Shown here piece after piece: positions 1 to 21,040 of a stretch of DNA of 30,076 bases. Source of the DNA: a virus. Numbering within the stretch: position 1 is the stretch's first letter; each line of letters begins with the position of its first letter. The position numbers and the translations under genes are program-made. Under the pieces are notes generated by a model. That model was not told the origin of the DNA, searched no databases, and was given only the letters and a program-made list of their open reading frames with translations. The stretch lies in the UHGV virus genome UHGV-1385480. The stretch is one strand, 5' to 3'.

Positions 1-94
1 TTTTTGTCGCATGGTGCAAGTTAAATAGGCGAGTAATCTCCTGTTTAGGTTTGCCTAATATCATGTACCCACAATAACACGAGGGGGTACAACA

Positions 95-367
95 ATGAAC
101 ATCGGTAAAGCAATCATCAACTACGCAGCGCGTCGCAACATGGACATTACCTTGATTGGGGATGAGACCGTGGCGTTCTGGGAAGCGGATAACGATTGTG
201 AATGGATGTTCTCCTACATGATTGGTAATGATGGTTTCCTCCACTTTAAAGGCAATGTGTATCTGCCGCAGGATATTAAAGAAGAATTACCAGCGTGCAT
301 CGATACAGACAAGAAGCTGAAAGAAGTAATCAACTTTATCGCTAAAGAGTTTATCAGCAAGAAGTAA
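95..367 (+). CDS. hypothetical protein (90 aa)
   Basis: ATG at 95 preceded by SD-like GAGGGGGT; open frame to TAA 365-367; no family recognised by eye. Confidence 0.5.
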   Translation: MNIGKAIINYAARRNMDITLIGDETVAFWEADNDCEWMFSYMIGNDGFLHFKGNVYLPQDIKEELPACIDTDKKLKEVINFIAKEFISKK

Positions 368-377
368 TGTCTAATTT

Positions 378-396
378 GGCGGGTACTATTCCCGCC
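378..396 (+). promoter_or_regulatory. conserved RNA hairpin (copy 1 of paralogous intergenic element)
   Basis: GGCGGG-TACTATT-CCCGCC directly after the upstream stop; paralogous to the element at 819-837, with compensatory C/T and G/A changes in the stem; followed by TTTAAACGGA...ACA ATG. Confidence 0.4.
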
Positions 397-417
397 GATT
401 TAAACGGAATACAGACA

Positions 418-804
418 ATGTTCAATATTATGACTCGTAAATTTGGTGAGATGACTTTCGAGAAAGCTGGTGTTGCTCGTACCGAAGAAGAAGCAATGGC
501 CTTAGTTCTGGTAGCACTGAGATCATCAACTGAGATTATCGACGCTGAATATGTAGCCGCAGAAGGTGAGATTAACGAGATTAAAGCGGTGGCTAAGGAA
601 TTAGGTGTTAAAGGTTTCCGTAAGCTGAGACTATCCCGCGAGTCATATGTAATTGGTAAGCAAGGACAATACCTAGATGAGAATACCGTGATTATTCTAC
701 TGAATAAGATCACCCGCTACGGTTGGAAGATTGAGCAATATAAAACGTGTTTCGAATTATACGAAAAAGGTTTGCTGGATACTCTGACCATCGTTCGCGC
801 TTAA
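418..804 (+). CDS. hypothetical protein (128 aa from ATG 418; frame is open from ATG 367)
   Basis: The ORF track starts at 367 (TAATG overlap), but the first codons would be the conserved hairpin; by analogy with the copy-2 element the likelier start is ATG 418. Ends TAA 802-804. Confidence 0.4.
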   Translation: MFNIMTRKFGEMTFEKAGVARTEEEAMALVLVALRSSTEIIDAEYVAAEGEINEIKAVAKELGVKGFRKLRLSRESYVIGKQGQYLDENTVIILLNKITRYGWKIEQYKTCFELYEKGLLDTLTIVRA

Positions 805-818
805 TTAATTTCTAATTT

Positions 819-845
819 GGTGGGTGTAATTCCCACCGCTTTTTA
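819..845 (+). terminator. hairpin plus T-run (copy 2 of paralogous element), likely intrinsic terminator or attenuator
   Basis: GGTGGG-TGTAATT-CCCACC followed by GCTTTTT; sits immediately after the stop at 802-804. Confidence 0.5.
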
Positions 846-860
846 AATGGAGAATCAAAC

Positions 861-941
861 ATGTTAGCTTTTATCTCATTCGTGGGAGGTAGTCTCACAA
901 CCATGATTAGTCTTTCTTATATTGTCGTTAGTATGGGGTGA
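861..941 (+). CDS. candidate 26-aa hydrophobic peptide
   Basis: ATG 861 with GGAGAA SD 6 nt upstream; MLAFISFVGGSLTTMISLSYIVVSMG; below the ORF-track size cutoff. Confidence 0.2.
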   Translation: MLAFISFVGGSLTTMISLSYIVVSMG

Positions 942-944
942 GCA

Positions 945-1067
945 ATGAAACAATTTCATGATGGCATTTCATCTAAGACATTCAAGAAAGAATATTCGCT
1001 GTGTATTAACTGGATTGATTTGATTGGTGCGGTTGTGTTTGGGCTGATTATTAGCATTAACTTTTAA
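945..1067 (+). CDS. candidate 40-aa membrane peptide
   Basis: ATG 945 after GGGGTG; MKQFHDGISSKTFKKEYSLCINWIDLIGAVVFGLIISINF with a C-terminal hydrophobic helix; ends TAA 1065-1067. Confidence 0.2.
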   Translation: MKQFHDGISSKTFKKEYSLCINWIDLIGAVVFGLIISINF

Positions 1068-1112
1068 TGATATAAATATATCGTAATTCAAACAACAAGA
1101 GGAAATTCTACT

Positions 1113-1532
1113 ATGAAAAAGATTATCGCTGGTGTTGTTCTTGCTCTGGGTTTGGTTGGTGCTGCGAATGCTAATACCTATACCTATTATGTGTGCAATT
1201 CCTACTTCGAATATAAAGGAGATGATACACGCTACCTGAGTGATGGCGACCGTTATTATCATGCGCCGTCTGGCAAATACCGTGGTTTTATCGGTGTAAA
1301 GGTTCGAGTGAATGATGATAATAGTCAATTTGCTTTCAACGATCCGGTATTTGATAAAACAATCAAAAGCCCAAAACTGAAAGAAGATAAGAACGAGAAA
1401 GAAGAATATTATGGTTCCGAAGATGGTAAATCCTACATCAAATATCTGCATTCTGTAGATGGCGCGCCTATATTTGATGTTAAAAAAGGTGATACGTCTT
1501 ATTCCCTGATTAGCTGCCGTGAAATTCTTTAA
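1113..1532 (+). CDS. exported (Sec signal peptide) protein of unknown function, 139 aa
   Basis: N-terminus MKKIIAGVVLALGLVGAANA has an n-h-c signal peptide pattern with an AxA cleavage motif; no lipobox cysteine; AGAGGA SD upstream. Confidence 0.6.
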   Translation: MKKIIAGVVLALGLVGAANANTYTYYVCNSYFEYKGDDTRYLSDGDRYYHAPSGKYRGFIGVKVRVNDDNSQFAFNDPVFDKTIKSPKLKEDKNEKEEYYGSEDGKSYIKYLHSVDGAPIFDVKKGDTSYSLISCREIL

Positions 1533-1546
1533 TCTTTAATCACCTA

Positions 1547-1582
1547 GCCCCTATCGTTATAATACGCGGTAGGGGCGTTTTT
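1547..1582 (+). terminator. intrinsic terminator
   Basis: GC-rich stem GCCCCTATCG / CGGTAGGGGC with a 10-nt loop, followed by TTTTTGTTT; directly downstream of the stop at 1530-1532. Confidence 0.55.
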
Positions 1583-1595
1583 GTTTGGAAATGGT

Positions 1596-3275
1596 ATGAA
1601 AACTAAACTGTATTCGTATATTCGCTTCTCGTCTATGCGTCAGAATGATGGTTCGAGTTATGAACGACAAATCAGGATGGCTAGAGAGATTGCGGTAAAG
1701 TATGACCTTGAACTGGTAAATGATTATCAGGATCTGGGTGTATCTGCGTTTAAGGGTGCTAACTCCAAAACAGGGGCGCTATCTCGTTTCCTTGATGCAA
1801 TAGGTAGATCCGTTCCTGTTGGTAGCTGGCTATTCATCGAAAACTTGGACCGTTTATCCCGTGCCGATATTGTCAGTGCACAGGAGTTATTCCTTTCAAT
1901 CATCCGTAGGGGGATAACCATTGTTACTGGCATGGATAACAAGATCTACTCGCTTGATACTGTTACCGCTAACCCGATGGACCTGATGTTCTCCATCCTT
2001 TTATTCATCCGTGGTAATGAGGAAAGCCAGACTAAGCGCAATCGTACTAACTCAAGCGCACTGATTAAGATTAAAGCTCATCAAGAAAATCCACAAAATC
2101 CGGCTGTTGCAATCGAGGAAATTGGAAAGAATATGTGGTGGACTGATACCACATCTGGTTATGTGCTTCCTCATCCGGTCTTCTTCCCTATTGTTCAGGA
2201 AGTTGTGGAATTACGCAGGAATGGACGGTCAACCGCCGAGATACTGGATCACCTTAACGCGACATACACACCACCACCAGCCGCAAGTCACAAGAGGCAT
2301 TCAAACTGGTCACGGGCAATGATTGAAAGGTTGTTCCATACCCGCGCTTTGATTGGTATCAAGGAAATCTCTGTAGATGGCGTTAAGTATGAGTTAAAGG
2401 ATTATTATCCTCGTGTGCTAGATGACGCTGAGTTTTATCACCTTAAGAAAAGCATTGGTGTTAGAGCATGTAACTTTGGAGACAAAGAAGAAGCTAAACC
2501 TATTCCCTTGCTTAGTGGTGTTGGTCTATTGAAATGTGAACATTGCGGTTCCGCTATGGTTAAGGTGAAAGGAACAAACAGACGGCCTAACCAATATCGT
2601 TATTCATGCGATGCAATGCGCTCTAGTCGTATTGAATGTGTGCATACAAACTGGAGTTTTCGCGGCGACCAATTAGAGAAAGCTGTATTGCAATTGCTGG
2701 CTGATAAAATCTGGATTGCTGAAGATAAGGCTAATCCGGTTCCGGCTTTGAAAGTACAGATTGATGAAATATCACGCAAGATTGATAACCTGATTACCCT
2801 TTCTGCTATGACAGGAGCAACGAAGGAGCTAGCCGATCAGATTACTACCCTCAATAGCGAGCGTGAAACACTCTACAATCAACTTAAGATGGCAGAAGAG
2901 GAAATGTATTCTGTTGACTCTCAAGGCTGGGAGAAGCTCGCAGAATTTGATTTAGAAGATGTTTACAACGAGGATCGCATTAAGGTCCGGTTTAAGATTA
3001 AGCAAGCTCTAAAACGGATCGGGTGTAGCAGGATTGACAAGTACAAAAACTTGTTTGTACTGGAATACATCGATGGCAAGACCCAGAGAGTTGTAATAGA
3101 AAATTCAAGAGGACCGAGGAAAGGCCGGATCTTCGTTGATTTGAAGACTATCAATGATAGGCAGATTCTGGAGAGTAACGGGCTTGTTCTGCATCCATGT
3201 TTAGACATGCTGACAGATAAGAACTGGAAACCAGAAGAAGAAATACCAGGTCCATTACAAGAATTTGGAATTTAA
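1596..3275 (+). CDS. large serine recombinase (integrase/resolvase-invertase superfamily with C-terminal zinc-ribbon and coiled-coil region)
   Basis: N-terminal resolvase-type catalytic region (YIRFSSMRQ; ENLDRLSR); C-terminal Cys cluster CEHCG...YSCDAMRSSRIEC typical of the recombinase zinc beta-ribbon; about 560 aa. The ORF track starts at a TTG (1581); the first in-frame ATG is 1596. Confidence 0.85.
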   Translation: MKTKLYSYIRFSSMRQNDGSSYERQIRMAREIAVKYDLELVNDYQDLGVSAFKGANSKTGALSRFLDAIGRSVPVGSWLFIENLDRLSRADIVSAQELFLSIIRRGITIVTGMDNKIYSLDTVTANPMDLMFSILLFIRGNEESQTKRNRTNSSALIKIKAHQENPQNPAVAIEEIGKNMWWTDTTSGYVLPHPVFFPIVQEVVELRRNGRSTAEILDHLNATYTPPPAASHKRHSNWSRAMIERLFHTRALIGIKEISVDGVKYELKDYYPRVLDDAEFYHLKKSIGVRACNFGDKEEAKPIPLLSGVGLLKCEHCGSAMVKVKGTNRRPNQYRYSCDAMRSSRIECVHTNWSFRGDQLEKAVLQLLADKIWIAEDKANPVPALKVQIDEISRKIDNLITLSAMTGATKELADQITTLNSERETLYNQLKMAEEEMYSVDSQGWEKLAEFDLEDVYNEDRIKVRFKIKQALKRIGCSRIDKYKNLFVLEYIDGKTQRVVIENSRGPRKGRIFVDLKTINDRQILESNGLVLHPCLDMLTDKNWKPEEEIPGPLQEFGI

Positions 3276-3279
3276 GCTA

Positions 3280-3537
3280 ATGAAGATGATTAAGATTTTA
3301 GGTTTAATTTTATCTATGAATTCTTGCTTGGCATTGGCAACCGTAGACCAAGAAATGCGTAGACCGCTAACCTATAGAGAAGATGCTTTCATTGATGGAG
3401 CACATAAGACATTGAAATTGCTATGTCAAAAGACCACCAGTAATTACGATGAATACAGAAAATGTTATGAGGAATCACTAGACATTTATTCTGATGAGGT
3501 GAGAAAGATTTTCATAGAACAAGAAAATAAATCATAG
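3280..3537 (+). CDS. small exported protein (85 aa)
   Basis: MKMIKILGLILSMNSCLALATV hydrophobic N-terminus with an ALA cleavage motif; weak SD; the track start at 3265 is TTG; ends TAG 3535-3537. Confidence 0.4.
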   Translation: MKMIKILGLILSMNSCLALATVDQEMRRPLTYREDAFIDGAHKTLKLLCQKTTSNYDEYRKCYEESLDIYSDEVRKIFIEQENKS

Positions 3538-3573
3538 GCGGCCTAAATCGCCGTATAACGAACCAAACGCTTT

Positions 3574-3599
3574 AAGGGGTACATTTGTACCCCTTTTTA
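3574..3599 (+). terminator. intrinsic terminator of the plus-strand accessory arm
   Basis: AAGGGGTAC-ATTT-GTACCCCTT followed by TTTTTAA. Confidence 0.6.
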
Positions 3600-3780
3600 A
3601 TTTAATTGCGTTAGAGAGTCTATAATTGGCTTAAATCAAGCTCTAGGTCTTCCGGTTCTTTCATTACTTCAACCAGAGACGGATCTACTTCGTCAAAAAC
3701 GACTTTATCGTCTGCGGTATATTTGTCTATAATGAAAAAATGGTCAGAAATATAGCTAACGTCGCCAGCATATTCTAACA

Positions 3781-3807
3781 AAAAAGCGCCCACCAGAGGC
3801 GCTTTTG
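3781..3807. terminator. bidirectional intrinsic terminator at the end of the minus-strand lysis operon
   Basis: GCGCC-CACCAGA-GGCGC stem flanked by A5 on one side and T4GT4 on the other, giving a U-run in either orientation; starts just past the stop of the peptidase gene. Confidence 0.5.
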
Positions 3808-3809
3808 TT

Positions 3810-4163
3810 TTATCCATTCCACCGTGATTTTTTTGATCTGGAATCAATATGCGTAAAGGTTTTATATTTTCCTAAGCCGTATTGAGTAGGATATTTCCCA
3901 TCAAGATAAGCATGAACAATATCAGGCGAGACACCCTTGATAACAATGTCAGCCGCACGGCCTCGAACATGATAGCTATTGGTTGCGCCGCCAACATTCT
4001 TATTATGAGTCGGACAACGGTTCCCACTGTTAATAATTACTGGCTTCCCGAAGTGCTCTCGTACATCCTCAAGAATTACCAGTAATTCAGCGTCGATTGT
4101 ATCATAATCACATTTTCCACATTTACATTTAAATTCCTTGCGAGAAAAATGTTTGCTTAACAT
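3810..4163 (-). CDS. peptidoglycan peptidase, M15 (hedgehog/DD-peptidase fold) family; probable endolysin
   Basis: SGNRCPTHNKNVGGATNSYHVRGRAADI and C-terminal FTHID match the H / D / H zinc-ligand layout of M15-type cell-wall peptidases; AAGGGGGT SD. Confidence 0.6.
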   Translation of the reverse strand: MLSKHFSRKEFKCKCGKCDYDTIDAELLVILEDVREHFGKPVIINSGNRCPTHNKNVGGATNSYHVRGRAADIVIKGVSPDIVHAYLDGKYPTQYGLGKYKTFTHIDSRSKKSRWNG

Positions 4164-4172
4164 ATTACCCCC

Positions 4173-4520
4173 TTAGATCATTTCGAAGATATAACCAATA
4201 AAGCGCATACCCTTGATGTAATAAGGAGCAGTACCTACACACACCGCGCGTGCATCGCCCAGACAGTTAAAGCTATAAGGATTAACCACATCAACTTCTT
4301 GCCCTACACGAAAACGATATTTAGGACGTTTAGCCAATGTAGCGACACAAAACACGGTCCCTTTTTCATGATCGCGGATACATTCTTTATATTGTTTATG
4401 TTTAACTCTCTTCGCCTCAAAATCATAGGTCATTGATTCTGGGCTAATGCCATTAATAAAAATACCGGAAAGCTGATCGACCGGATAAGTAGGAAATTCA
4501 GTGAAAATATTTTTAGCCAT
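4173..4520 (-). CDS. hypothetical protein (115 aa)
   Basis: ATG with GGGGGT SD; ends TAA; no family recognised. Confidence 0.5.
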   Translation of the reverse strand: MAKNIFTEFPTYPVDQLSGIFINGISPESMTYDFEAKRVKHKQYKECIRDHEKGTVFCVATLAKRPKYRFRVGQEVDVVNPYSFNCLGDARAVCVGTAPYYIKGMRFIGYIFEMI

Positions 4521-4558
4521 GTTATACCCCCATAAGATTCTATGAGGGTATTTATGGA

Positions 4559-5242
4559 TTAAACGTATCTCATGCGCGATTTAATGTGCTTATTAATGTT
4601 CTTAAGCATCATTTCCTCGTTGCTTTCCCACGATCCTAGCGTCGAATAACGAGTAGAAATTTTATCCGACTTAACGGCAACAATTCGCTTACTCTGTTTC
4701 TGGATGCGTTTCTCTAAGCGACGTTTTGCCACCGCCGATCCATTCTTAGCGCGTTTGGTTCGGGATTTCTTAGGCTTGTACTTCTTCATGATAAAAGTCC
4801 CTTCCTTGTTCTCTACCTTGATGAAGTTGCCGTTTTCGATGTTACGCATCATCTTACCGCCTTTGATGGCCTTAATGTTCCCGTGGGAGTCTAAGACCTT
4901 ACCGTTGGCGATTGGCACTAGCTTATTGATTTTGCCGCCATCGAAATAGTGTTTCAGATAGTCATCCTGACTGCCGATCTTCTTGTCCTTATCCCTTGCG
5001 CCCTTGATGAAGATTTGGTGTCTGGTCCCTGATCGGTTCTTGTAGTTGGTATTACCTACAGCTTGCTGAGTCCAGCGAGTAGGTCTATCAACATTCTTGT
5101 TAATCTTCTTCTGTAGTGCACGAGCAGCAAAGATCGCCCCTTCCCCTATCGCCCTTTCGAATGTATCGGTTGCCTTTTCAGACCATTGCCGTAACGCTTT
5201 CTTAGTCCTTAGAGCGTTTCGTTTATTGGTACTGGTTGCCAT
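4559..5242 (-). CDS. highly basic Lys/Arg-rich protein (227 aa), unknown function
   Basis: ATG 5242 with GGGGGC SD; composition dominated by K/R (for example KKYKPKKSRTKRAKNGSAVAKRRLEKRIQKQSKR). Confidence 0.5.
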   Translation of the reverse strand: MATSTNKRNALRTKKALRQWSEKATDTFERAIGEGAIFAARALQKKINKNVDRPTRWTQQAVGNTNYKNRSGTRHQIFIKGARDKDKKIGSQDDYLKHYFDGGKINKLVPIANGKVLDSHGNIKAIKGGKMMRNIENGNFIKVENKEGTFIMKKYKPKKSRTKRAKNGSAVAKRRLEKRIQKQSKRIVAVKSDKISTRYSTLGSWESNEEMMLKNINKHIKSRMRYV

Positions 5243-5243
5243 G

Positions 5244-5414
5244 TTAGCCCCCTAATAACGAAAAGACCCCCGCCAGTGTCCTTAGCAATTGTTCATCCAC
5301 GGCCATAGCCGGGAGTTCAAGCCCAAAGGACGTAAGCAGAGGTCTAATTGCTACGTTATAAGTGAGGGCGATAATCAAGAGATAACCAAAATATTTCTTA
5401 AGTTTATTCTTCAT
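5244..5414 (-). CDS. candidate 56-aa single-pass membrane protein (holin/antiholin-like)
   Basis: ATG 5414 with AAAGGGGTG SD; MKNKLKKYFGYLLIIALTYNVAIRPLL... has one hydrophobic helix; stop TAA is 1 nt before the next start; below the ORF-track cutoff. Confidence 0.35.
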   Translation of the reverse strand: MKNKLKKYFGYLLIIALTYNVAIRPLLTSFGLELPAMAVDEQLLRTLAGVFSLLGG

Positions 5415-5432
5415 ATATTCACCCCTTTATTA

Positions 5433-5711
5433 TTATTTTTGTTTGAGTATGTCGAGAACTTGGTCAAATTTGGCGTCCATCGCAACCACTTTCTTCTCTA
5501 TACCGTGTAGTGTTTGTTCCATTTGGTAAACACGTTCAGCAATCTGAGTATGGTTATTCTGCATCGTCTCAAACTTCTGGTTTAACAATGCGTCGCTGGA
5601 TTCCAATTTCGACAATCTATTTTCAGTTGCTAATTGATTTCGGTGAAGTCTCCAAAGACCACCGCAAATTAAGGCGATAACACCGATACCGCCATATATA
5701 ATTTCAGTCAT
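5433..5711 (-). CDS. membrane protein with N-terminal transmembrane helix and coiled-coil C-terminus (holin or i-spanin-like)
   Basis: IIYGGIGVIALICGGLW hydrophobic segment followed by a heptad-like charged region; GGGGGC SD; no embedded lipoprotein ORF found. Confidence 0.4.
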   Translation of the reverse strand: MTEIIYGGIGVIALICGGLWRLHRNQLATENRLSKLESSDALLNQKFETMQNNHTQIAERVYQMEQTLHGIEKKVVAMDAKFDQVLDILKQK

Positions 5712-5750
5712 TACGCCCCCGATATTTTTATAATTTCATGGCAGAATTAT

Positions 5751-5796
5751 TTAGATAAAAATAATCCCGCCTAACTCAAAAGAATTAAGCGGGATT
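5751..5796 (-). terminator. intrinsic terminator after the central tail fibre gene
   Basis: On the minus strand AATCCCGC ... GCGGGATT (8-bp stem, large loop) followed by AUUUUUAUCU. Confidence 0.4.
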
Positions 5797-5815
5797 AATT
5801 ATTAAAATTAAATTT

Positions 5816-8800
5816 TTAAGAAACAGTAATACCCGTAGTGGCTTTTTTAGTTACCATTACAGTTAAATCACTGATCCATGTGCTAGGCGTCCAGTTGTTG
5901 ATTGCGCTTGATTGCACTTCAAAGGTCAAGGTCACAGCACCTTTACCCGCTGGCATATCAATAACACCTGAGTAAAGACCAGTATTACCGCCATACGCCC
6001 TATTATACAACTCTGACCCATTCTTACGAACAATCAGGCGACAGGTGTCGTAATAGGTATTATTGTTCGACCCTTCACGCGCTCGCAATCCACCAAAACT
6101 AATCGCCGGAATAACGATTTGACGATCGAACTTGTGATCATCTTCAACGCGAACGGTTACTGTACCTTGCGGATAGCCGCCATAACCATTATCAACGTTA
6201 ACATCACGGTGTGGGAACTTACGACCAATCACCTTAACGAAATCACCCTTAACCTGAGTAGCTTCAAGCATACCCTTAATAACACAGCTAGAGTTAATCG
6301 TGACGTTGTTCAGAGTACCAGAATCAGCCGTGATATTACCTTTAACGGTAGCGTTCATGAACGTAGCGGACCCGTTCTTGTTGATATGCCATCCGGTTGA
6401 TCCGTTCCAGTTGGAAGACTGGATATAGTTACCAATTTTGGCGTTATCAATTGCACCGTTTACGATCTTGGCGTTAGTGATTGCCCCGTCCTGAATCTTC
6501 GCGCTGTTAATTGCGGCATTGCCGATCTTGGCAGTAGTAATCGCCGCATCATTAATCTGGGCTGTACCAATTGCAGCATTACGAATCATCGCATTATCGA
6601 GATAAACCTTGTTACCTTCGATACCAAACGGACATACCCCCGATCCATTCTGTGGAGCTACCGCGATTTTATCAGCCGTAAAGATGATTCTTGTCGGTTC
6701 TGCCGGATCATTGGTTGCGCTCATATGAATACCAGCCACGCGACCATCTGCATTAACCGCCAGATTGTATTTGCTGTTAATGGTTCCTTTCAAAGCATCG
6801 ATTTTTACATCTGCTTCCTGATTCACACCAGCAATCTTGCCATCCATTTCTACCCGAACTTGATCAATCTTACTTGCGCTTGCTGCCTCACTGGTTGCAA
6901 TTGCTTGTTTCAGGGTTGTAGCGGAGGCGCTAACTTCTTTGGTGATATCGCCTTTCAGTTCAGCTTTAACCTGATCAATCTTAGTTGAACTTGCCTTATC
7001 ACCAGAAGCAATCAGACTCTTTAAGGTATCGGCTGAGGCTTGAACAGTTTTACCCGTCTCGGTAGTGATTTGCTTATGCATTGCATCAATTTTAGCATCG
7101 GCATTAGCGCCAGCTTGCTTAATAGCATCCGCGATAGTTTCATCTAAGCGATCTTGTAAACCGATCAGGTCTTCCAGTGCTTCTTTGTCCTGATCGTCCC
7201 AACTAATCGTAGACTTCATTTGCATGAAATACGGTTCAGACCAAACAGCATCATCCATACCGAAAATATCGTAGTGAGCACCACGGATATAATAATCACC
7301 GTCAGCAATATCAAAGGAAGTATGGCTAACACTATTCGTACTTACTGCCCTTGCATCTGAGAAAGTGTTGTCGGTTGCATACTGGATGATTGACCCTGCA
7401 TAGTCATGTTCTACGTCATCCGCCCAGCTAACAAACGCAGTATTAAAGCCACCACGCGCACTAAAACCTTTCATTGGCTTATGTTGTGGGTTGATAGCCA
7501 CTAAACGCGCTGGGGCGCTCTCTGAGTTGTTATAGCCCTTAGCTGATACTTCTACCGTAAGTTGACGCGAAAGGCCGTTAAACTGGTTCATATCAAGCGT
7601 ATAAGTCCATGATTCAGGATCGCGGGTACGGTACTGAATAGACTTACCAGCCTTGTTAGTCACCTTGATAATGTATGCTTCAAACAGGTCACTAAACTTG
7701 TTAGTTTCACCGTTGATCTCAACATCTAATTGTTGCTGATTTTCCCATTCGATAATCAGATCATTACCTTCGAAAGTTCCTGGCGTGCTACCCTGATTTT
7801 TGATTCGAATAACCGGAGTCGGCAATTCATAGGTAACAGTAGGATTCTGGTTAATCAGTTCTACCCAATCGGATCTCGCGATGATACCGAAAGCACAAAC
7901 TCGGTAATCGTAGGAACGATCTTTTGCCAGTGCATTGACACTGAAAATTTGCTGTGAAGTCTGTCCCAACTTAATCCAGTTAGGTGATCCGCTTACACGG
8001 TAATCAATCTGGAAGCCGTAGCGGTTAAAATCTTCTGGTGCATCCCATGTCAAAGTAACGTTTTTACCGTAAATCGTCTCGCCAGTTGCCTTAATTCTGA
8101 AATTAGTAGGCTTCTGTACTGTCATTGAATCCGGTAAACCACTTGGTCGGTTATCTGGGTTAGCCGCATAGTTCAGGTCAGTATAAACCTGAGAATTATA
8201 TTCTGTAGCGGTGATAGTCATCATCCCAGCAATACCAGAATCAATCGAGCGATCAATTGCAGTAATACGCCATAAGGAATTATTCAGCTTCAATTCATCA
8301 TAGGTTACGCTGATAACGTCCCAAACTTCGGCAGTGAATGCGTCAGTAGTCATAAAGCTGATAACCTGAGTGATACGAGATTTATTTCGCTCAATACTCG
8401 CAAGTTTATCAATCTGGGCTTTAGACTTAACAAAACGATATTCAATATCTTTAGCGATAATTCGACCATCTTGACGAATAGTAGCATCGTTTTCAGCATC
8501 AGCCGGATAACGTAGCATTTGCTCTGAATAGTCGATTGATGGTTCTTGATACATCGCGTTAATGGTATTGAAATAACCGTTAGTGCCACCTGTTTTCAGT
8601 GATACCTTACCCATCATGATATTGTCTTCATTGAAGGTATGCTTAACAATATCAGGAGCATCCAGTTTCAGCGTAATACGTCCAAAGGATTCGAACATCA
8701 CCCCGCCGAAAGTCTGCATAAGGCTAGTCAAGTTCTCTTTAAAGCTGGCGTTCGGATCACATGCACCGTTTGAATGCAAATCCATCTGGCGTACTTGCTT

Positions 8801-9592
8801 ACGTACTTTCAGGAATGAATCAACGTTGATGTTTTCAATTGGTACACTAAGACCATATTTTGTATTTGTCAGATAATGGAAAATCTGGTCCACGCCGTTA
8901 GTGCTAGCCTCAATAGCATTGGTTTCAAGGTTACGAATCTTTAACCCGCAAACGTCTACCGCTACCTGGCTATTTGGTTGGAGAATATCAACACCAGCAG
9001 CAAGAGATTTGTCATCACGACGCAACACAATACACATGGTCGCAATACCATTGCCTTTGTAGTTGTCGTTCCAGTCTGACCCTAAGTGACGTTTTGCCAG
9101 TGACAAAGCGGTGTTAGGATTCTTACCAGTGCGGAACTCAACCTCTAAAACTTTCCGGTATTCTTCTTTAATGTTGCCTTTGTCCAGTACACCATCACGG
9201 ATCGTCATGTTCTTACCAACAAGAACATTTTTGTTATCGATGAATAGTGCTTTGTAATGGTCGATTTCACCCTCTGCAATTGCGAAGATTTGCACTAACT
9301 TATTGTTTTCTTGCTTAGAAATTGCTTTGTAAACGCAGATTGCACCCGTGCGGGTAGTACCGAAAAGAACGGGTAATACTGTCTTCGGATCGTTTGATGT
9401 TCCTAGTGTCACCGCATTATCTGGGCTTTGTACTTTCGGTGTTTTTGGTGCGCCTACAGTGGAAGCGATCAAGGTCATTGCACCAGCAGCCATACCGATA
9501 GCGACTGCGGTCATAACAGAAAATGTTGCAGCAGCAGCCATCCCAGCAGACGCACCAGCAATAACCGCGCCTACCAATATTTCAAATCCCAT
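5816..9592 (-). CDS. central tail fibre / host specificity protein (lambda gpJ-like) with an N-terminal gpI-like segment fused in frame
   Basis: C-terminus ([11 protein letters not shown] ... [12 protein letters not shown] ... VMVTKK) resembles the recalled lambda gpJ C-terminus (HPFDRQIVVLP ... MPAGRGNVILTF ... VMVIKK); N-terminal ~90 aa (Gly/Ala-rich hydrophobic stretch, [14 protein letters not shown]) resembles the recalled C-terminal part of lambda gpI; ATG overlaps the upstream stop (TAATG). Confidence 0.85.
   Translation of the reverse strand: [1258 protein letters not shown]
6425..6600 (-). repeat. tandem ~21-nt (heptapeptide) repeats inside the central fibre gene
   Basis: Protein [48 protein letters not shown]; the DNA shows the matching periodic att-gc...atctt units. 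Confidence 0.5.
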
Positions 9593-11321: not shown

Positions 11322-13754
11322 TTACATCTTACGACGCTGTGCGTCTTCTACCGCCTGAGCAACTAACTTAGCGTGACGTTTGATAGCATCCATAACCATC
11401 TTGTCTGAGCTATTAACGTTGCCGTTAATGTTCAAAGGCGCATTAACTTCAATCGGCTGAGAGTTACCACCGCCTGATTTTTGAGCAGATAAGAAGTCTT
11501 TCAAATCACCGTTAGTACGCTGATCAACTACTCGTTCACCCTTATCAAGCAACCATGTACCCTCACGCGGGATGTTATCGATACCATCATGAGCCATACC
11601 GCTAACATTAGTAGACTTGATGTTTGCAATGTTCCCCATGTTCTGAGAAACAGCCAATGCAGCAGCAGCGATCTTTTGACCTGTGGTTACGTTGGTCGGA
11701 TCGTTCCATGCATCGGTAGCAGCCGTCCACATGTTCACCGTCGCTTGTCCAATTGAGAATGCTTTATGAGCATTGAAAGCCATCTGCATAGCTTTTGTGT
11801 TTTCCTGCCCGAAGAGAGTCATTGCAGCAGCAAAACCGCCGTACATATCATCAGCTATTGACTGACGAGCATCAGCATATTTCTTTTCAATTGCAGCCAT
11901 CCGTTTTTGATGGTTTTCATTGAGTTTTTCTAATGCTTCCATCCGTTTAGCCGGATCATTAATACCGTCAATCTTGAGTTTATCGGTCTTATAATCTTGT
12001 TCAGCATCCGATTTCTCTTTATCGATTGCATTAAATTTAGCAAACGGATTATTTGAGTCTTGATAATCATAACCACTAGTTAATTGATTGGTTTTATAAC
12101 CATCCATTCCCTGTAAAGAATTTTCAATCTGAGAATAGTTTTGCTCGGTATCGTTCACACGACGCATATATTCTTCGTAGGAGATAGCTTTACCATCAAG
12201 TAACCGTTTATGGCTTTCTAGCTCGTTGTCCCTGATTTGTTGCAATTGTGTTAAAGCATTCAGAGCATCAATCGGATCAGCACCCAACATCATTTTATAA
12301 ACGTTTTCAGTATTCTGATCGATTAGCGCCTGGCGTTTCGCGGCTGCGTCTTCCTGAGAGATTAAGCCCAGAGCTAACGCGTCGTTCACATCTTTTAAGC
12401 TGTTTTGCAACTGGCTATTTTGAGAAGTGATAGACGCTGCAACTTGCCCTTGCAATTTAACATCAAGTGCATTCAGTCGCTTGATTGCATCCTCGCGTGC
12501 TTTCTGTGCTTTTTCTGCGGCTTCCTTAGCCTTTTTAGCTGCCTCTTCCGCTTTCTTTTTGGCTTCTTCCTCGGCTTTCTTCTCGTTGCCAGACTTACCC
12601 AATGATTCTGGTCTTACTGGTTTATTTGGTATAGTCAAATCAGTGTTAGGATCTGCCTTGCGTGTCAGATGTTCACCTGCATCTACGACAATCAGAGCAC
12701 CACTTGAAGTTTTATAAGACCCACCAAAACGTTTCTTAAATCCTTCAACATCAAAGCCAGCAGTACGAGGATCGACACCAGCACCACGGATCGCGGCCTT
12801 TTCCCAATCTGCTAGATTATTCCAACGCTTTTCTTTATTGTACTTGTCAATAATCTTTTGAGCGTCTTTATGGTTGGCGTTAAGAATACCACCAGTTGCG
12901 GTCTTGCCTTCTTTATTCAGTCGATCTAATGCCCTGAATAGAGAACTCTTTTCCCAATCAATATTAAACCATTCAAATAACCAGTTTAAGCTATCAACCA
13001 AAGGACCAGTAATGGTCATGGCTGCGCCTTTCAGGTTATTTTCCAGCTTATTAATATTCTGAGAAAATTTATCATATTTTTTAGCGTTTTCTTCGGTGAC
13101 GTTAACAGATTGATTCTGAATAGCGATCATCGCCTCTTGAGCACTATTATATTTCTCAAGCTGGCTGGTCATATGGCTTGAATCACTGGCTAAAGATTCC
13201 ATCATGAACTTGATTTCAGCCATTGATTTTCCGGCTTTCTTCATGTCATAGAACACTTGGATCGCCGCTTTCATACCACCTTGCGGATCTGTCATGAAGT
13301 GAGCATAGTTTTCTAACTTAAGACCAACCGATTCTAAGTCATCAGCAATACCACCACCGTTAGCCCATGCATCACCCATCTTATCTAAGGTGTCTTTGTT
13401 GATATCACCGAATTTTTCAACTGTTAGGCCAGTACCAGAAAATTCCTTTTCTAGTCTTTGAAGGGATTCAATCGAGAGTCCGGTCGCCTTAGATACTTCT
13501 GAATACTGTTTAACGTATTCCGCACCAGCTTTAGCGGCTGCAACCACTGCGGTCGCAACTAAGCCGATACCACCAGCAGCCAAACCAGCAGAGCCAGCGA
13601 TCCCACGAAGAGATCCAGTCAAACCAGACAAGCCACCACCAAAATCAATACCACTTGCCTTTTCAGACAAACTATCGAGAAGGTCGGCGGCTTCACTGGT
13701 ACTTCTCCTTAGACCTTTATTATCCCCTTCTATTGTTACTATATGTTTTGTCAT
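11322..13754 (-). CDS. tail tape measure protein
   Basis: 810 aa; Gly/Ala-rich hydrophobic N-terminal region (GIAGSAGLAAGGIGLVATAVVAAAKAG) and long Ala/Lys/Glu-rich helical regions; sits between the chaperone pair and the distal tail proteins. Confidence 0.8.
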   Translation of the reverse strand: MTKHIVTIEGDNKGLRRSTSEAADLLDSLSEKASGIDFGGGLSGLTGSLRGIAGSAGLAAGGIGLVATAVVAAAKAGAEYVKQYSEVSKATGLSIESLQRLEKEFSGTGLTVEKFGDINKDTLDKMGDAWANGGGIADDLESVGLKLENYAHFMTDPQGGMKAAIQVFYDMKKAGKSMAEIKFMMESLASDSSHMTSQLEKYNSAQEAMIAIQNQSVNVTEENAKKYDKFSQNINKLENNLKGAAMTITGPLVDSLNWLFEWFNIDWEKSSLFRALDRLNKEGKTATGGILNANHKDAQKIIDKYNKEKRWNNLADWEKAAIRGAGVDPRTAGFDVEGFKKRFGGSYKTSSGALIVVDAGEHLTRKADPNTDLTIPNKPVRPESLGKSGNEKKAEEEAKKKAEEAAKKAKEAAEKAQKAREDAIKRLNALDVKLQGQVAASITSQNSQLQNSLKDVNDALALGLISQEDAAAKRQALIDQNTENVYKMMLGADPIDALNALTQLQQIRDNELESHKRLLDGKAISYEEYMRRVNDTEQNYSQIENSLQGMDGYKTNQLTSGYDYQDSNNPFAKFNAIDKEKSDAEQDYKTDKLKIDGINDPAKRMEALEKLNENHQKRMAAIEKKYADARQSIADDMYGGFAAAMTLFGQENTKAMQMAFNAHKAFSIGQATVNMWTAATDAWNDPTNVTTGQKIAAAALAVSQNMGNIANIKSTNVSGMAHDGIDNIPREGTWLLDKGERVVDQRTNGDLKDFLSAQKSGGGNSQPIEVNAPLNINGNVNSSDKMVMDAIKRHAKLVAQAVEDAQRRKM

Positions 13755-13862
13755 AAATTACCCCGTTTGTGCGCTTCTGAGTTTCTCAAGCAAAGATGGA
13801 TCGAACATGCTCAATGTTGCAGCTTTACGTTCTTCTTCTTTCTTGCGTGCAAGTTCTTCCAG

Positions 13863-14108
13863 TTATCCTTGAGTTTTAAAGAGTTTTTCTTCTCTAATTA
13901 ATTGGAATTGGCTAGGCTTGAGTTTCTTTGCAGTTTCACGAGTCATTCCTTGCGACGTCATATACATGGAATATTGCAACATCGCATTCTGCATATCATG
14001 AAACGCGGGGCTTTGTGGTTCTAAGTAGGTGTCGAAAATGTATAATTTCCAAAACAGAGTGATTGGCATATTATCCATTTCATCTTTACTAAGCCCCGAT
14101 CGCATCAT
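13863..14108 (-). CDS. tail assembly chaperone, T-like frame (probably expressed as a frameshift extension of the upstream chaperone)
   Basis: No SD before its ATG ATG; frame is -1 relative to the upstream ORF and is open from just inside that ORF's end; canonical G/GT position before the tape measure gene. Confidence 0.4.
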   Translation of the reverse strand: MMRSGLSKDEMDNMPITLFWKLYIFDTYLEPQSPAFHDMQNAMLQYSMYMTSQGMTRETAKKLKPSQFQLIREEKLFKTQG

Positions 14109-14137
14109 TTGCCGAAAATAGAAATTCAGAAGCGGGT

Positions 14138-14446
14138 TTACTTTACCTCGTTTTCAATTACTGCCGGATCTTGCATCAATGACGCTTGAGCAACCAAACC
14201 GATTAATTCACTGCGGACGTTAGTATACAGTGCCTTAACTTGTTCCATAGATTCAAATACCGGTTTACCGTCTTCATCTTCAATACAACGAAGAATCGAA
14301 CGTTCATCACGGTCTTCTTTATCAGTATTGAAAACATGTTCGTTAAATTCTTTTACTGACATAGGGCGAGCATAGAACGTGAATCCGCCGATGGTCAGAG
14401 ATTCACGTTTCGGAGAAAGAGCTTTCAGCATTTCATTAATATTCAT
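14138..14446 (-). CDS. tail assembly chaperone (gpG-like)
   Basis: 102 aa, acidic; AGAGGA SD; position immediately upstream of the T-frame ORF and the tape measure gene. Confidence 0.5.
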   Translation of the reverse strand: MNINEMLKALSPKRESLTIGGFTFYARPMSVKEFNEHVFNTDKEDRDERSILRCIEDEDGKPVFESMEQVKALYTNVRSELIGLVAQASLMQDPAVIENEVK

Positions 14447-15009: not shown

Positions 15010-15038
15010 TAAAAAAGCCCCACCATTAAGGCAGGGCT
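15010..15038 (-). terminator. intrinsic terminator (copy A) after the tail tube gene
   Basis: Minus-strand RNA AGCCCUGCC-UUAAU-GGUGGGGCU followed by UUUUUU; near-identical to the terminator at 20879-20906. Confidence 0.7.
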
Positions 15039-15043
15039 TAAAA

Positions 15044-15169
15044 TTAATTCTTAGCCTTGCGGCCTCGTTTTGCTGTGGCTTTCGCCGTAACTTCTTCTAC
15101 TTCTGGAATCACCACCGCTTCATGTTCCGGCAGTGGTTCCGGTTCTGGTAAAGGAAGTTCTTCGTTAGT
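15044..15169 (-). other. in-frame 41-codon extension downstream of the tail tube TGA (candidate readthrough product)
   Basis: Directly after TGA-A: TNEELPLPEPEPLPEHEAVVIPEVEEVTAKATAKRGRKAKN then TAA; no ATG or SD of its own; homologous to the extension after the capsid gene. Confidence 0.4.
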
Positions 15170-18600: not shown

Positions 18601-19230
18601 GACCGTACTAGTAAGATTGGTGATCTTCGTGTCCGCATCTTTCTTATTATCCGCTACCGTCTTTTCTATTGCTGATTTATTTGCTGCGACAGTATTCGTT
18701 AAGTTGGTAACGTTGGTATTCGTCTGATCAACTCGCGCATTAATATCTGTCTTGTTCTTGTTAATTGTCGCGTTGATAGTATCGCGGGTTGAAGTAATAG
18801 TCTGATTCAGTTCAGTCTTAGCAGCCGCCAGAGCGTTAGCCGCTTCGGTTTTATTGTTACCTACTGTGGTAGTCAAAGCATCAATTCGCTTGTTGGCTGC
18901 GGTATCGCCAGCAGTGATTGAAGCATTGAGAGTATCACGGGTAGAAGTGATAGTCTGATTAAGTTCAGCTTTAGCCGTAGCCAGATTATTAGCGGCTTCG
19001 GTTTTATTTGCTGAAATGACTTTATCTGTGTTGACCTTGTTGGTGTCTACTTTCGTATTCAGTTCAGCGTGTTTTTCTGGAGAAACACTAATTTGGACTA
19101 CGTTATTATTTTTATCTTTGGTGTAAATCACATGGTCCGCCAGTTGTAAGGCGATCTCGCCCTGTGATAATTGTTCCGGCGTTGGTTTTTTACCAGCCGT
19201 TTGTGTGCGTTTAAATTGGATCGACTGCAT
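15700..19230 (-). CDS. tail fibre protein with C-terminal intramolecular chaperone (peptidase S74-like) domain
   Basis: 1176 aa; N-terminal repeated Asn/Thr/Ala-rich segments; C-terminal ~114 aa starting SDSRLKINKEEL... ending in a coiled coil, matching the self-cleaving chaperone domain of endosialidase / L-shaped fibre proteins. Confidence 0.8.
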   Translation of the reverse strand: MQSIQFKRTQTAGKKPTPEQLSQGEIALQLADHVIYTKDKNNNVVQISVSPEKHAELNTKVDTNKVNTDKVISANKTEAANNLATAKAELNQTITSTRDTLNASITAGDTAANKRIDALTTTVGNNKTEAANALAAAKTELNQTITSTRDTINATINKNKTDINARVDQTNTNVTNLTNTVAANKSAIEKTVADNKKDADTKITNLTSTVSANKTAIERTVANNKASADAAIAAANQRIDSIEGSADAAYIKKNTNTKHGGYLLSKTANYLEDQTARDLNYFGAFRTNGQDGLMDLTLNVPHSAGKAHGRGFTFRYASGGSRVETYGFDREGQKNFSYKMYHEGDKPTPGEIGAYTKAEVDKMFVKNVVMSVPNSSENVSAYFKLATATIPQNGRSVFFRIHGGNGYNVTAYDQVDVVEILLRSGNDRPKGLNVIAYRRNTNKDFEVFAVNTSGDNYDIYVKYQRYTDNVIVEYGKSVYVSLTVYDTPEATLIKPSVGVIGGRNVTLFNTENKRGVLSFDDNTQNSYDIVHLSNDKGTGRKYIRKFRSNYNEMVWHETVQGAVYRLATGATDSTEVIRIDSNSAIPGNYKGYVITGKMELHGSGNAMTLHRQTGQAAYMAWWDRRDGKNQRSGYIGHADGTSDGFVWRNDVGANSFDLEGSGQVNLTTGKTKIVYTNGQYYSANADAFRMIYGKYGAFWRNDGGKVYLLSTAENDRFGGWNGNRPFIYDLTNGKVTLGGDGNEGALVLERDSRAARFAGDTYIEKGFLTFSAGRSGSRDYIRFNHWGDSNNARDNVLYLEDSQGRHFSTERAMGTGALKANFLGDLEVGGKFTWGKNTATSSFNIRAWGNDSRKQVLECGDESGWHWYTQRPGGPGTTAIEFAINGTVKPQAIHTGGNITLNGADIEFRRTGNKHIWFRDPTGLELGLMYSDDAGVIRFRGQKQAQTWKLADKMIHLESGSVGGSDKGLIRGNVSGGSWSSWRDRASGLQVDCPQSTDSAHNIWKATHWGKYHIAAMGVHVPSGTIGNALVRLHVNDTNFDFNAAGDFTAGRNGSFNDVYIRSDSRLKINKEELQDGALEKVNSLKVYTYDKVKSLSDDTVIKREVGIIAQDLEKVLPEAVGIQSTEDPENPEAIKTISNSAVNALIIKAMQEMDAKYKAQIEALQKEIAELKATK
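18540..19010 (-). repeat. imperfect tandem repeats in the tail fibre N-terminal shaft
   Basis: Protein repeats NKTEAAN(N/A)LA(T/A)AK(A/T)ELNQTITSTRDT and TNLT(N/S)TV(A/S)ANK(S/T)AIE(K/R)TVA; the underlying DNA blocks are visibly similar. Confidence 0.5.
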
Positions 19231-20152: not shown

Positions 20153-20575
20153 TTAAAAACGCGCTAGATAAGAAAATTTAAGGCTAAGTGTCCCAACGAT
20201 ACCCCCATCACTAGAATCATCGTCATAATCGGTATTAGAAGCTACTGGAGTGATATCTGAAATAGAGAAGCCCAAATCTTTAAAACGTGGATTATCCGGC
20301 TGAATCTGGATTATCTGGCAAATACCCTCATGAATTTTGGTTTCATGATTCTGAGAATACAACTGCATTTCGATAACGCATTCAGCTTGCATTGCATTAC
20401 CACCACGGACCCTATTGTAAGTCTCATTCATTCCGGTAATCCAACAAACCACGTCATCACTAAAGCCTTGCTGAGTTTGTTCTACGTTTAAAGCCAGACC
20501 TAAATCTTGTTCGATAATATCCTGCAAGGCGCGTTTGATTTTCAGTCTAGGCATATTATTAACGGTAGCGAGCAT
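20153..20575 (-). CDS. head-tail connector / head completion protein, putative (140 aa)
   Basis: Start chosen at ATG 20575 (AGGGGGT SD) rather than the track start 20656; position between the capsid and tail genes. Confidence 0.35.
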   Translation of the reverse strand: MLATVNNMPRLKIKRALQDIIEQDLGLALNVEQTQQGFSDDVVCWITGMNETYNRVRGGNAMQAECVIEMQLYSQNHETKIHEGICQIIQIQPDNPRFKDLGFSISDITPVASNTDYDDDSSDGGIVGTLSLKFSYLARF

Positions 20576-20849
20576 GTGTACCCCCTGCACGAGCAATAAA
20601 GCAATCAGAAGTATTATCACCATTGCGCTTAACGTATTGAACTTTGAAGCGTTCACCGTCTACAATGACAACATCACCCTGATTTAAGTCTCCCTCACGA
20701 CAAAATAGAAATTCTGATTCTGTAATTACCCCTTGTTCGTCGGTAGTGGTAATTTCATGATAAGCACGAATTGATTTACCACCTTCCACCGAAAATACAG
20801 GAGCACTTTTAAACATTCGATTTAATTGTGATTCTGATAATTTGAACAT
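20559..20849 (-). CDS. head-tail connector protein, putative (96 aa)
   Basis: ATG 20849 with AAGGGGGT SD just after the capsid terminator; position only. Confidence 0.35.
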   Translation of the reverse strand: MFKLSESQLNRMFKSAPVFSVEGGKSIRAYHEITTTDEQGVITESEFLFCREGDLNQGDVVIVDGERFKVQYVKRNGDNTSDCFIARAGGTHARYR

Positions 20850-20878
20850 AGTTACCCCCTTTATGGAGTATTTACATA

Positions 20879-20906
20879 CAAAAAAGCCCCACCGTTAGGC
20901 AGGGCT
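20879..20906 (-). terminator. intrinsic terminator (copy B) after the capsid gene
   Basis: Minus-strand RNA AGCCCUGCC-UAAC-GGUGGGGCU followed by UUUUUU. Confidence 0.7.
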
Positions 20907-20911
20907 AATTA

Positions 20912-21040
20912 TTATTCTTTAGTTTTACGCTGTTTTTTAGCTGTGGCTTTCGCCTTAACCGTCTGGGATTCTTCTTCCGGTTCAGGAATCAGATTTTCTT
21001 CCCCCAAATCGGGGGAAGGTTCAGATGGTTCTACAGGAGT
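20912..21040 (-). other. in-frame 42-codon extension downstream of the capsid TGA (candidate readthrough product)
   Basis: Directly after TGA-A: TPVEPSEPSPDLGEENLIPEPEEESQTVKAKATAKKQRKTKE then TAA; no independent start. Confidence 0.4.

Follow-up and report, generated by a model that had tools for sequence, protein, structure and literature searches.

The UHGV virus genome UHGV-1385480, a single stretch of 30,076 nucleotides (hereafter the window), carries near its left end a recombinase gene flanked by small genes, which raises the question of whether this enzyme integrates the virus into a host chromosome and, if so, at which site. An original prediction, made from the sequence letters, described a large serine recombinase bracketed by two Sec-exported proteins at the end of a lambda-like structural arm, and read it as an integration plus cargo module that implied a temperate lifestyle or a mobile insertion. 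The gene at 1596-3275 on the plus strand was found to be the integrase gene of an uncharacterised temperate siphovirus-type prophage of ~35 kb, present in Escherichia coli and Shigella. The window represents the left end of this prophage, which sits within the host gene hicB. It is very probable that, as a whole, the system consists of a serine integrase that recombines the phage attachment site (attP) with a bacterial site (attB) in hicB, exchanges strands at a central TT, has its target set by its recombinase domain (RD) and zinc-ribbon domain (ZD), and lies between variable cargo slots.

Open reading frames (ORFs) were present on the plus strand at 1113-1532, 1581-3275 and 3265-3537, as the original prediction had them. 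Gene callers behind public records start the second of these at the ATG at 1596, giving a protein of 559 aa. This protein matches the Pfam models Resolvase (PF00239, 2.1e-14), Recombinase (PF07508, 1.5e-7) and Zn_ribbon_recom (PF13408, 1.6e-9), all above gathering thresholds, and PHROG 95 'integrase' (2.9e-58), with a secondary match to PHROG 125 'DNA invertase' (2.4e-11). In an alignment of 61 homologues with identities down to 27%, no variation was seen at the catalytic residues Y8, R10, Q16, D85, R86 and R89 (motif YIRFSSMRQ) or at the zinc-ribbon cysteines C314, C317, C338 and C348, while at least 90% of the sequences retain S12. The resolvase-type motifs and cysteine cluster noticed at the outset are therefore those of a large serine integrase, and profile searches of the kind it had proposed agree. 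The gene evolves under purifying selection throughout (dN/dS 0.04-0.37).

The AlphaFold2 model of the protein (mean pLDDT 83) predicts a catalytic N-terminal domain (NTD, residues 1-136), a helix E (139-164), an RD (~180-291) and a zinc ribbon (312-372), after which two long helices (382-406 and 410-437) are placed at the position of a coiled coil, and an additional C-terminal alpha/beta domain (460-540) is predicted. The closest solved structures are all full-length serine integrases, namely 9dxd/9dxh, PhiC31 (9rah), the LI integrase (4kis) and Bxb1 (9iu8), with E values of 1e-16 to 1e-6 and full-length alignments at a probability of 1.00. At the sequence level there was a single match in the PDB, to the NTD (E 5e-4). 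Judged by its sequence, the enzyme is a member of an unnamed enterobacterial clade of large serine integrases, with every defining feature that can be examined in this way. This domain architecture is read directly from the data; catalysis by the 559-aa protein, the directionality of the reaction and the control of that directionality we infer.

The window begins in host DNA, because its position 1 falls inside the 3' fragment of hicB. Through the TT, positions 1-52 differ from K-12 hicB at a single base, and RefSeq annotates a partial hicB at the equivalent of the window start in CP024134. In this complete genome the prophage splits hicB into a 117-nt fragment (by ydcR) and a 309-nt fragment (by hicA), separated by ~38 kb that include insertions of the insertion sequences (IS) IS1 and IS421 and a NUMOD3 gene, all absent from the window. 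Besides the IS transposases, the sole annotated recombinase of this interval is the 559-aa protein, and no second integrase is annotated in the prophage in the CP024134 record. The additional sequences of the CP024134 copy (locus L011) were assigned as IS1A, IS421 and NUMOD3 (homing-endonuclease-type), tail region (11894-12591, 13467-14237 and 20293-21405).

The identical 559-aa protein occurs in 671 index blocks of an assembly collection, in E. coli and Shigella, and lies ~1.7 kb from ydcR-ydcSTUV-patD in 10/10 places examined. Among complete E. coli genomes, 3659 of 5426 match some part of window 1-4000 and 23 match at least 80% of it; the remaining matches would be to the host end only, as the hicB annotation carried by the listed matches suggests. 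The hosts include human, pig, cattle and chicken E. coli (O6:H16, O55:H7) as well as Shigella, and most genomes have an empty hicB. Integrated copies are thus abundant, in line with the temperate lifestyle and integration module first proposed, for which the split hicB, the short crossover and the variable flanks described below also speak. Neither of the findings named at the outset as refuting, a non-integrase grouping such as a DNA invertase or a lack of integrated copies, was obtained.

The prophage ends were defined by aligning the junctions of CP024134 with intact K-12 hicB (all sequences are given in window orientation). The attB in hicB is ...CTCCTGTTTAGGT-TT-GCCAATTCGCCTGG... (also given as ...CCTGTTTAGGT-TT-GCCAATTCGCC...), the attL of the window reads ...TTTAGGT-TT-GCCTAATATCATGTACCCACAA..., and attR is ...GGGTTGACTACATTCGGG-TT-GCCAATTCGCC.... 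The reconstructed attP, ...GTTGACTACATTCGGG-TT-GCCTAATATCATGTACCCACAA..., is an imperfect dyad of ~46 bp (also given as ...ACATTCGGG-TT-GCC[A/T]AATAT...). The attL lies ~1.5 kb 5' of the integrase gene and attR ~35 kb from attL, past the window end. Comparison with host genomes, which the original prediction had recommended, thus located attL outside the region 1113-3537. Two intervals it had offered as attP candidates proved to be something else: 1533-1595 holds an intrinsic terminator (hairpin 1547-1576 plus a T run), and 3600-3780 is taken up by the minus-strand ORF 3620-3847, close to a further hairpin at 3574-3595.

In CP024134 the sites share an apparent core of 7 bp because the P' arm there matches attB for five further bases. 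In hicB lysogens whose P' arm starts CCCTAATAT, identity to attB ends directly after the TT, and five independent hicB attR sites switch from phage to host at one common point. A lysogen in a second gene, ycdX (AP027634), has attL GGGA-TT-GCC, attR CGGG-TT-TCC and attB GGGA-TT-TCC, and common to all three is TT only. A non-palindromic 2-bp crossover without longer identity is the product of a serine and not a tyrosine integrase; the integrated state, junctions and 2-bp core are observed, and the reaction is deduced from these integration products. About the TT, attP is symmetric at 13-14/22 positions and each attB at 7/22, and the half-sites share CC at +2/+3 (8/8), A at +5 (7/8) and A at +6 (6/8). 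The P arm stands out as a conserved island of ~30 bp, since the DNA around it cannot be aligned between the hicB and ycdX lineages. The P' arm occurs once in the window (0 expected by chance) and is identical to that of AP027634. The integrase would recombine the ~46-bp attP with attB in hicB, exchanging strands at the central TT and yielding attL (window 29-74) and the distant attR.

The ycdX lysogens allow the choice of target to be traced within the protein. This sister lineage has an integrase 92% identical to that of the window, with the differences clustered in residues 195-350, and across the family the gene has a mosaic structure, in which the catalytic domain occurs as allele N1 or N2 (82% identical) and the segment 190-355 likewise in two alleles (~81% identical). 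The target was predicted from the 190-355 segment and afterwards checked by genomic context: N1 with the hicB-type segment lies in hicB, N2 with the hicB-type segment (P0033) beside ydcR/ydcS, i.e., at the hicB site, and both N1 and N2 (P0049) with the ycdX-type segment in ycdX. Target and RD/ZD segment are therefore observed to co-segregate, and this natural two-by-two comparison indicates that attB choice is set by the RD/ZD segment and not by the catalytic-domain allele. Twenty differences are fixed between 48 hicB-type representatives, assigned as such by sequence, and 4 ycdX-type representatives; all fall in residues 203-349, with 12 in the RD, 1 in the linker and 7 in the zinc-ribbon core, and none in the catalytic domain, coiled coil or C-terminal domain. 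Salmonella relatives (69-73% identity) are also integrated in ycdX, which is the site in the Salmonella and several of the E. coli relatives examined. The hicB and ycdX attB sites show a modest resemblance, being identical at 19/44 flanking positions (binomial P ~0.01), mostly in the inner 10 bp. The sister RD/ZD allele would send near-identical phages with almost the same attP into ycdX.

Between different alleles, dS reaches 0.41-0.50 in the RD/ZD segment, as compared with 0.04-0.08 in a shared NTD, and 1.3-2.0 when N1 is compared with N2. Shared alleles of the NTD and RD/ZD segments have a low dS of 0.03-0.08, with the exception of 0.30 between the two N2-type copies. The dN/dS of the RD/ZD segment is 0.22-0.24. 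The idea that the change in specificity arose by recent adaptive point mutation was rejected on the basis of the high RD/ZD dS together with this dN/dS, and the pattern indicates recombinational exchange of old alleles under purifying selection.

These results also bear on whether the recombinase might be an accessory enzyme, acting as an invertase or resolvase on an internal site or carried as a YbcK-like passenger, with integration at hicB performed by another enzyme. Lambdoid phages with YbcK-type genes carry a separate tyrosine integrase, and such genes are among the nearest named phage proteins (~30% identity); the secondary PHROG 125 match and the location of attP away from the gene point the same way. 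However, apart from the IS insertions of CP024134 the prophage has no annotation for a further integrase or transposase, the protein has the RD, ZD and coiled coil of a 559-aa enzyme and not the 190-aa invertase layout, and no pair of inverted repeats in the window that might delimit an invertible segment was better than chance. Furthermore, the junctions share 2 bp only, which fits serine and not tyrosine integrases, and the target gene co-varies with the DNA-binding segment of this very protein. An accessory role is considered very improbable. A small serine DNA invertase of the Hin/Gin/Pin type was rejected on the same grounds of size, RD/ZD content and inverted repeats limited to chance-level imperfect matches.

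Several observations weigh against an active integrase system of the kind proposed. An excised or circular form was not found, as two degenerate attP-junction patterns gave 0 matches in six scans of viral, metagenome and genome collections. Between attP and the integrase gene lie ~1.5 kb and three ORFs, and in many serine-integrase phages this spacing is shorter. The attR of CP028733 has an aberrant P arm. No recognisable repressor or replication genes were detected in the prophage, so some or all copies could be defective, and no recombination directionality factor was identified in it. Finally, the 48 representatives were assigned to the hicB type by sequence, and the target was checked by context for only four proteins (the window protein, P0033, P0007 and P0012). 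In the attR of NZ_CP028733.1 (locus L056, ~450-510), ...GGGGTTTACAACATTTAGGT-TT-GCC takes the place of ...GGGTTGACTACATTCGGG-TT-GCC; this P arm matches the host B arm in its inner 8 nt and has one extra base, for which gene conversion, an imprecise event or an attP variant could be responsible.

With regard to the missing excised form, IMG/VR holds 27 related loci, and those anchored at contig ends begin at gene boundaries or in host DNA. No attP is seen in these loci because none of them holds the P' arm; the entries are prophages whose ends have been cut at gene limits. Metagenome scaffolds of phage size were also considered as excised forms, but the two in question (35.8 and 37.5 kb) both begin in hicB and are therefore integrated copies.

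The same observations could be explained if the prophage were a defective, immobile remnant that the recombinase had inserted in the past, with no excision or transfer now. Besides the lack of an attP junction in any collection scanned and of recognisable repressor or replication genes, this is favoured by the lack of an isolated phage relative in GenBank phage records, where megablast of window 1-6000 gave one 42-nt match and the capsid protein reached a best identity of 43%. Several copies also carry IS1/IS421 insertions or large deletions. One of them, in NZ_OY856299.1 (2514229-2519800), retains only ~5.6 kb between the left end (equivalent to window 1-3532) and right-end sequence, and is a heavily deleted remnant in which the integrase and both ends are kept. 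Against this, the recombinase ORF is intact and under the purifying selection noted above, and the structural, lysis and packaging ORFs of the window copy are uninterrupted. The element is spread widely, if sparsely, over unrelated E. coli backgrounds and Shigella, with hicB empty in most genomes, which argues for repeated recent integrations, and the exchange of modules between lineages indicates ongoing phage-phage recombination. A remnant is thus an unlikely general explanation, though individual copies may be remnants, and some are clearly decayed.

The crossover falls within the HicB codons ...R-I-G-K.... In the lysogen the hicB frame runs on into phage DNA and ends ...ARRIGNPNVVNPK at a stop, with ~35 residues lost. 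In a review (PMC11594946, citing Manav et al., 2019) the N-terminal domain of E. coli HicB is described as neutralising HicA and the C-terminal helix-turn-helix (HTH) domain as binding DNA and dimerising. Insertion would remove the latter and leave the former, so that a lysogen may be expected to keep toxin neutralisation and lose autoregulation. On the minus strand of window 2-64 the P' arm provides an in-frame ATG (MILGKPKQEITRLFNLHHATK...) that reads into the severed HTH fragment of hicB. This is probably a coincidence, because the attL variant of CP024134 (GCCAAATATTATG) is without that ATG.

The coordinates of the features at this end of the prophage are collected in Table 1.

Table 1. 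Features at the left end of the prophage in UHGV-1385480 (window positions).
Feature	Coordinates	Strand	Basis
Host DNA: 3' (C-terminal, HTH-encoding) fragment of hicB, through the crossover TT; B arm of attL	1..52	-	K-12 hicB comparison
attL: B arm, TT (51-52), P' arm GCCTAATATCATGTACCCACAA (53-74)	29..74	+	attL/attR/attB three-way comparison
First phage gene after attL, 90 aa, phrog_6147	95..367	+	ORF list, PHROG
145-aa ORF, phrog_14908; followed by terminator-like hairpin 818-838	367..804	+	ORF list, PHROG, hairpin scan
Cargo gene, 139 aa, predicted exported small beta-barrel	1113..1532	+	ORF list, homologues, structure model
Intrinsic terminator, 11-bp stem (hairpin 1547-1576) and T run	1547..1586	+	Hairpin scan
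Large serine integrase, 559 aa	1596..3275	+	Pfam, PHROG, alignment, AlphaFold2 model, structure search
85-aa ORF, signal-peptide-like N-terminus	3280..3537	+	ORF list, database search
Terminator-like hairpin closing the plus-strand block at the convergent lysis genes	3574..3595	+	Hairpin scan

The integrase gene is transcribed convergently with an M15 endolysin gene (3810-4163), the lysis-region ORFs and a gpJ-type tail-tip gene (5816-9592), all on the minus strand, as originally described. The locus is constant in all relatives examined, between the left prophage end and the endolysin gene, including Salmonella at 69-73% identity. The likeness to lambda that was first suggested applies loosely: it extends to the gpJ-type C-terminus of the tail-tip protein and a gpA-type terminase, and not to any close isolated phage.

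With respect to the two flanking proteins, the evidence for export is unequal. The N-terminus of the 139-aa protein (MKKIIAGVVLALGLVGAANA|N) closely resembles a Sec signal in a home-made test, not a trained predictor (12-mer hydropathy 2.98, ANA|N site), and both the signal region and two invariant cysteines are conserved in six homologues. Its structure model has a low-confidence N-terminus followed by a confident beta-barrel, and it is predicted to be a conserved exported beta-barrel. On the downstream side, the likelier start of ORF 3265-3537 is the ATG at 3280. By the same test its N-terminus is less signal-like (hydropathy 1.92, ALA|T site), and the 85-aa product is an ORFan with a single matching protein cluster among 5.8 billion, for which reason its status as a gene is unsupported by conservation. 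Of the two bracketing proteins proposed to be Sec-exported, the first is the stronger candidate and the second the weaker.

Most relatives examined have a similar-sized ORF at the position of 95-367, compared by size and position. The two slots beside the integrase differ between relatives. In the upstream slot, between the left-end genes and the integrase, some relatives have in place of the 139-aa gene an ORF of 81 aa, of 137 aa or, CapR-like, of 345 aa. The downstream slot, between integrase and endolysin, contains in the window the 85-aa ORF and a small minus-strand ORF; in relatives it is occupied by genes for a GIY-YIG/CapR-like protein, a 185-aa protein, a UvsW-type helicase with UvsY, or a Phage_Inh_N protein, among others. 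A block of GIY-YIG/CapR-like, 185-aa, UvsW-type helicase and UvsY genes, absent from the window, is present in many relatives (L016, 9056-12445; L017, 5755-9310; L018-L020; L022-L023). The presence of ORFs 1113 and 3280 thus varies among related phages, as is characteristic of moron or cargo genes, and the variation of both integrase flanks fits a cargo hot spot. Terminator-like hairpins at 818-838, 1547-1576 and 3574-3595 bound the units (8 found in the scan vs. 3.0 expected). The plus-strand small genes beside the integrase would therefore occupy variable, terminator-bounded cargo slots. A promoter scan gave 8 hits vs. 12.2 expected, none convincing. A perfect TATAAT is located at 1558-1563, in the loop of the terminator hairpin and 33 nt 5' of the integrase ATG. 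This hexamer may be part of an integrase promoter that overlaps the terminator, and the scan did not call it because its -35 is poor.

The variability of the flanks, together with the orientation of the block on the strand opposite to the structural genes, might indicate that the recombinase and its small neighbours are a separate mobile element inserted into the phage as cargo. However, all relatives examined have the gene at the same place, even Salmonella at 69% identity, recombination took place at the very ends of the prophage, the G+C content over 1-4000 (0.38-0.44) is like that of the remaining window, and no internal att-like repeat surrounds the block. This explanation is considered the least probable of all, and the mobile insertion named as an alternative in the original prediction is not supported, given the constant gene position.

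The right arm of the prophage (L011 33000-40650; window ~27100 to end) contains no recognisable repressor, replication or excision gene. Its genes include one for a Rha-type regulator, one that is TerS-like and lies ~6 kb from TerL, one for an acidic protein of 331 aa, and small unassigned ORFs, and it has a 1.25-kb unannotated gap (L011 35176-36421) with no Rfam match; no RNA family of Rfam was detected in the window or in this arm. The last gene before attR (L011 39615-40394) encodes an LprI-family ('lysozyme inhibitor') protein with a signal peptide, so that predicted exported proteins adjoin both prophage ends. Elsewhere in the window, a terminator-like hairpin together with the 3' coding end beside it is present in two 71%-identical copies at a distance of 5.9 kb (15012-15091 and 20880-20959), and a 92-nt direct repeat (82% identical, spacing 153) is located inside the long tail-fibre gene (18764-19008).

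The integrase has the same domain order as the enzymes of PhiC31, Bxb1, Listeria A118/LI and TP901-1, namely NTD, helix E, RD and zinc ribbon with embedded coiled coil, and known phage serine integrases likewise use an imperfect-dyad attP of ~46 bp, a less symmetric attB and a non-palindromic central dinucleotide with no further identity. It differs from them in the additional C-terminal alpha/beta domain (~460-540), the enterobacterial host and the ~1.5 kb between attP and gene, and its identity to structurally solved serine integrases is 12-16% in structural alignments. The nearest annotated phage proteins are YbcK-type recombinases (DLP12, lambdoid) and those of the Burkholderia phages Bcep176 (gp53), Bcep22 and JC1, at 27-31% identity over 81-84% of the length, which is too distant for a transfer of function. 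Within the family, the proteins most similar to it (at least 58% identity) come from Escherichia, Shigella, Salmonella and Edwardsiella, and all are unnamed entries labelled 'recombinase family protein'. Weak NCBIfam matches were obtained to XisF of the fdxN element (3e-13, residues 197-459) and to CcrB of SCCmec (1e-3); at 49.5 and 17.9 bits against cut-offs of 375 and 900, the protein is not an equivalog of either.

Integration inside a coding gene is also known from other serine-integrase prophages and elements. A118-type phages split comK and the skin element splits sigK. Similarly, SprA of SPbeta is described as integrating within spsM and leaving two gene fragments (PMC5499854). Precise excision would restore the gene, here hicB or ycdX. 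In contrast to SPbeta, A118 and skin, the target in the present case is a domain of a toxin-antitoxin regulator and not a sporulation or competence gene, and no sign of excision regulated by development or stress was seen. It is conceivable, as a rather doubtful extension of these findings, that the phage lineage retargets by swapping the RD/ZD cassette alone while attP stays near-constant, and that deregulation of HicAB serves as a form of lysogenic conversion or prophage addiction that precise excision reverses.

The searchable literature yielded no account of prophages integrating in hicB or ycdX, and the sequence is absent from the supplements of the large serine recombinase catalogue of Durrant et al., in files that are possibly incomplete. 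For a clade of large serine integrases of E. coli, Shigella and Salmonella that had not been characterised, the analysis defines attB, the attL/attR junctions and the dinucleotide of the crossover, and reconstructs attP. The accepted view of the serine integrase mechanism is unchanged by these results. The hicB/ycdX pair represents a natural swap of specificity, in which the 20 fixed positions form a short list of candidate determinants of specificity, of use for the retargeting of serine integrases, and the truncation of the DNA-binding domain of an antitoxin would provide a testable link between lysogeny and toxin-antitoxin regulation.

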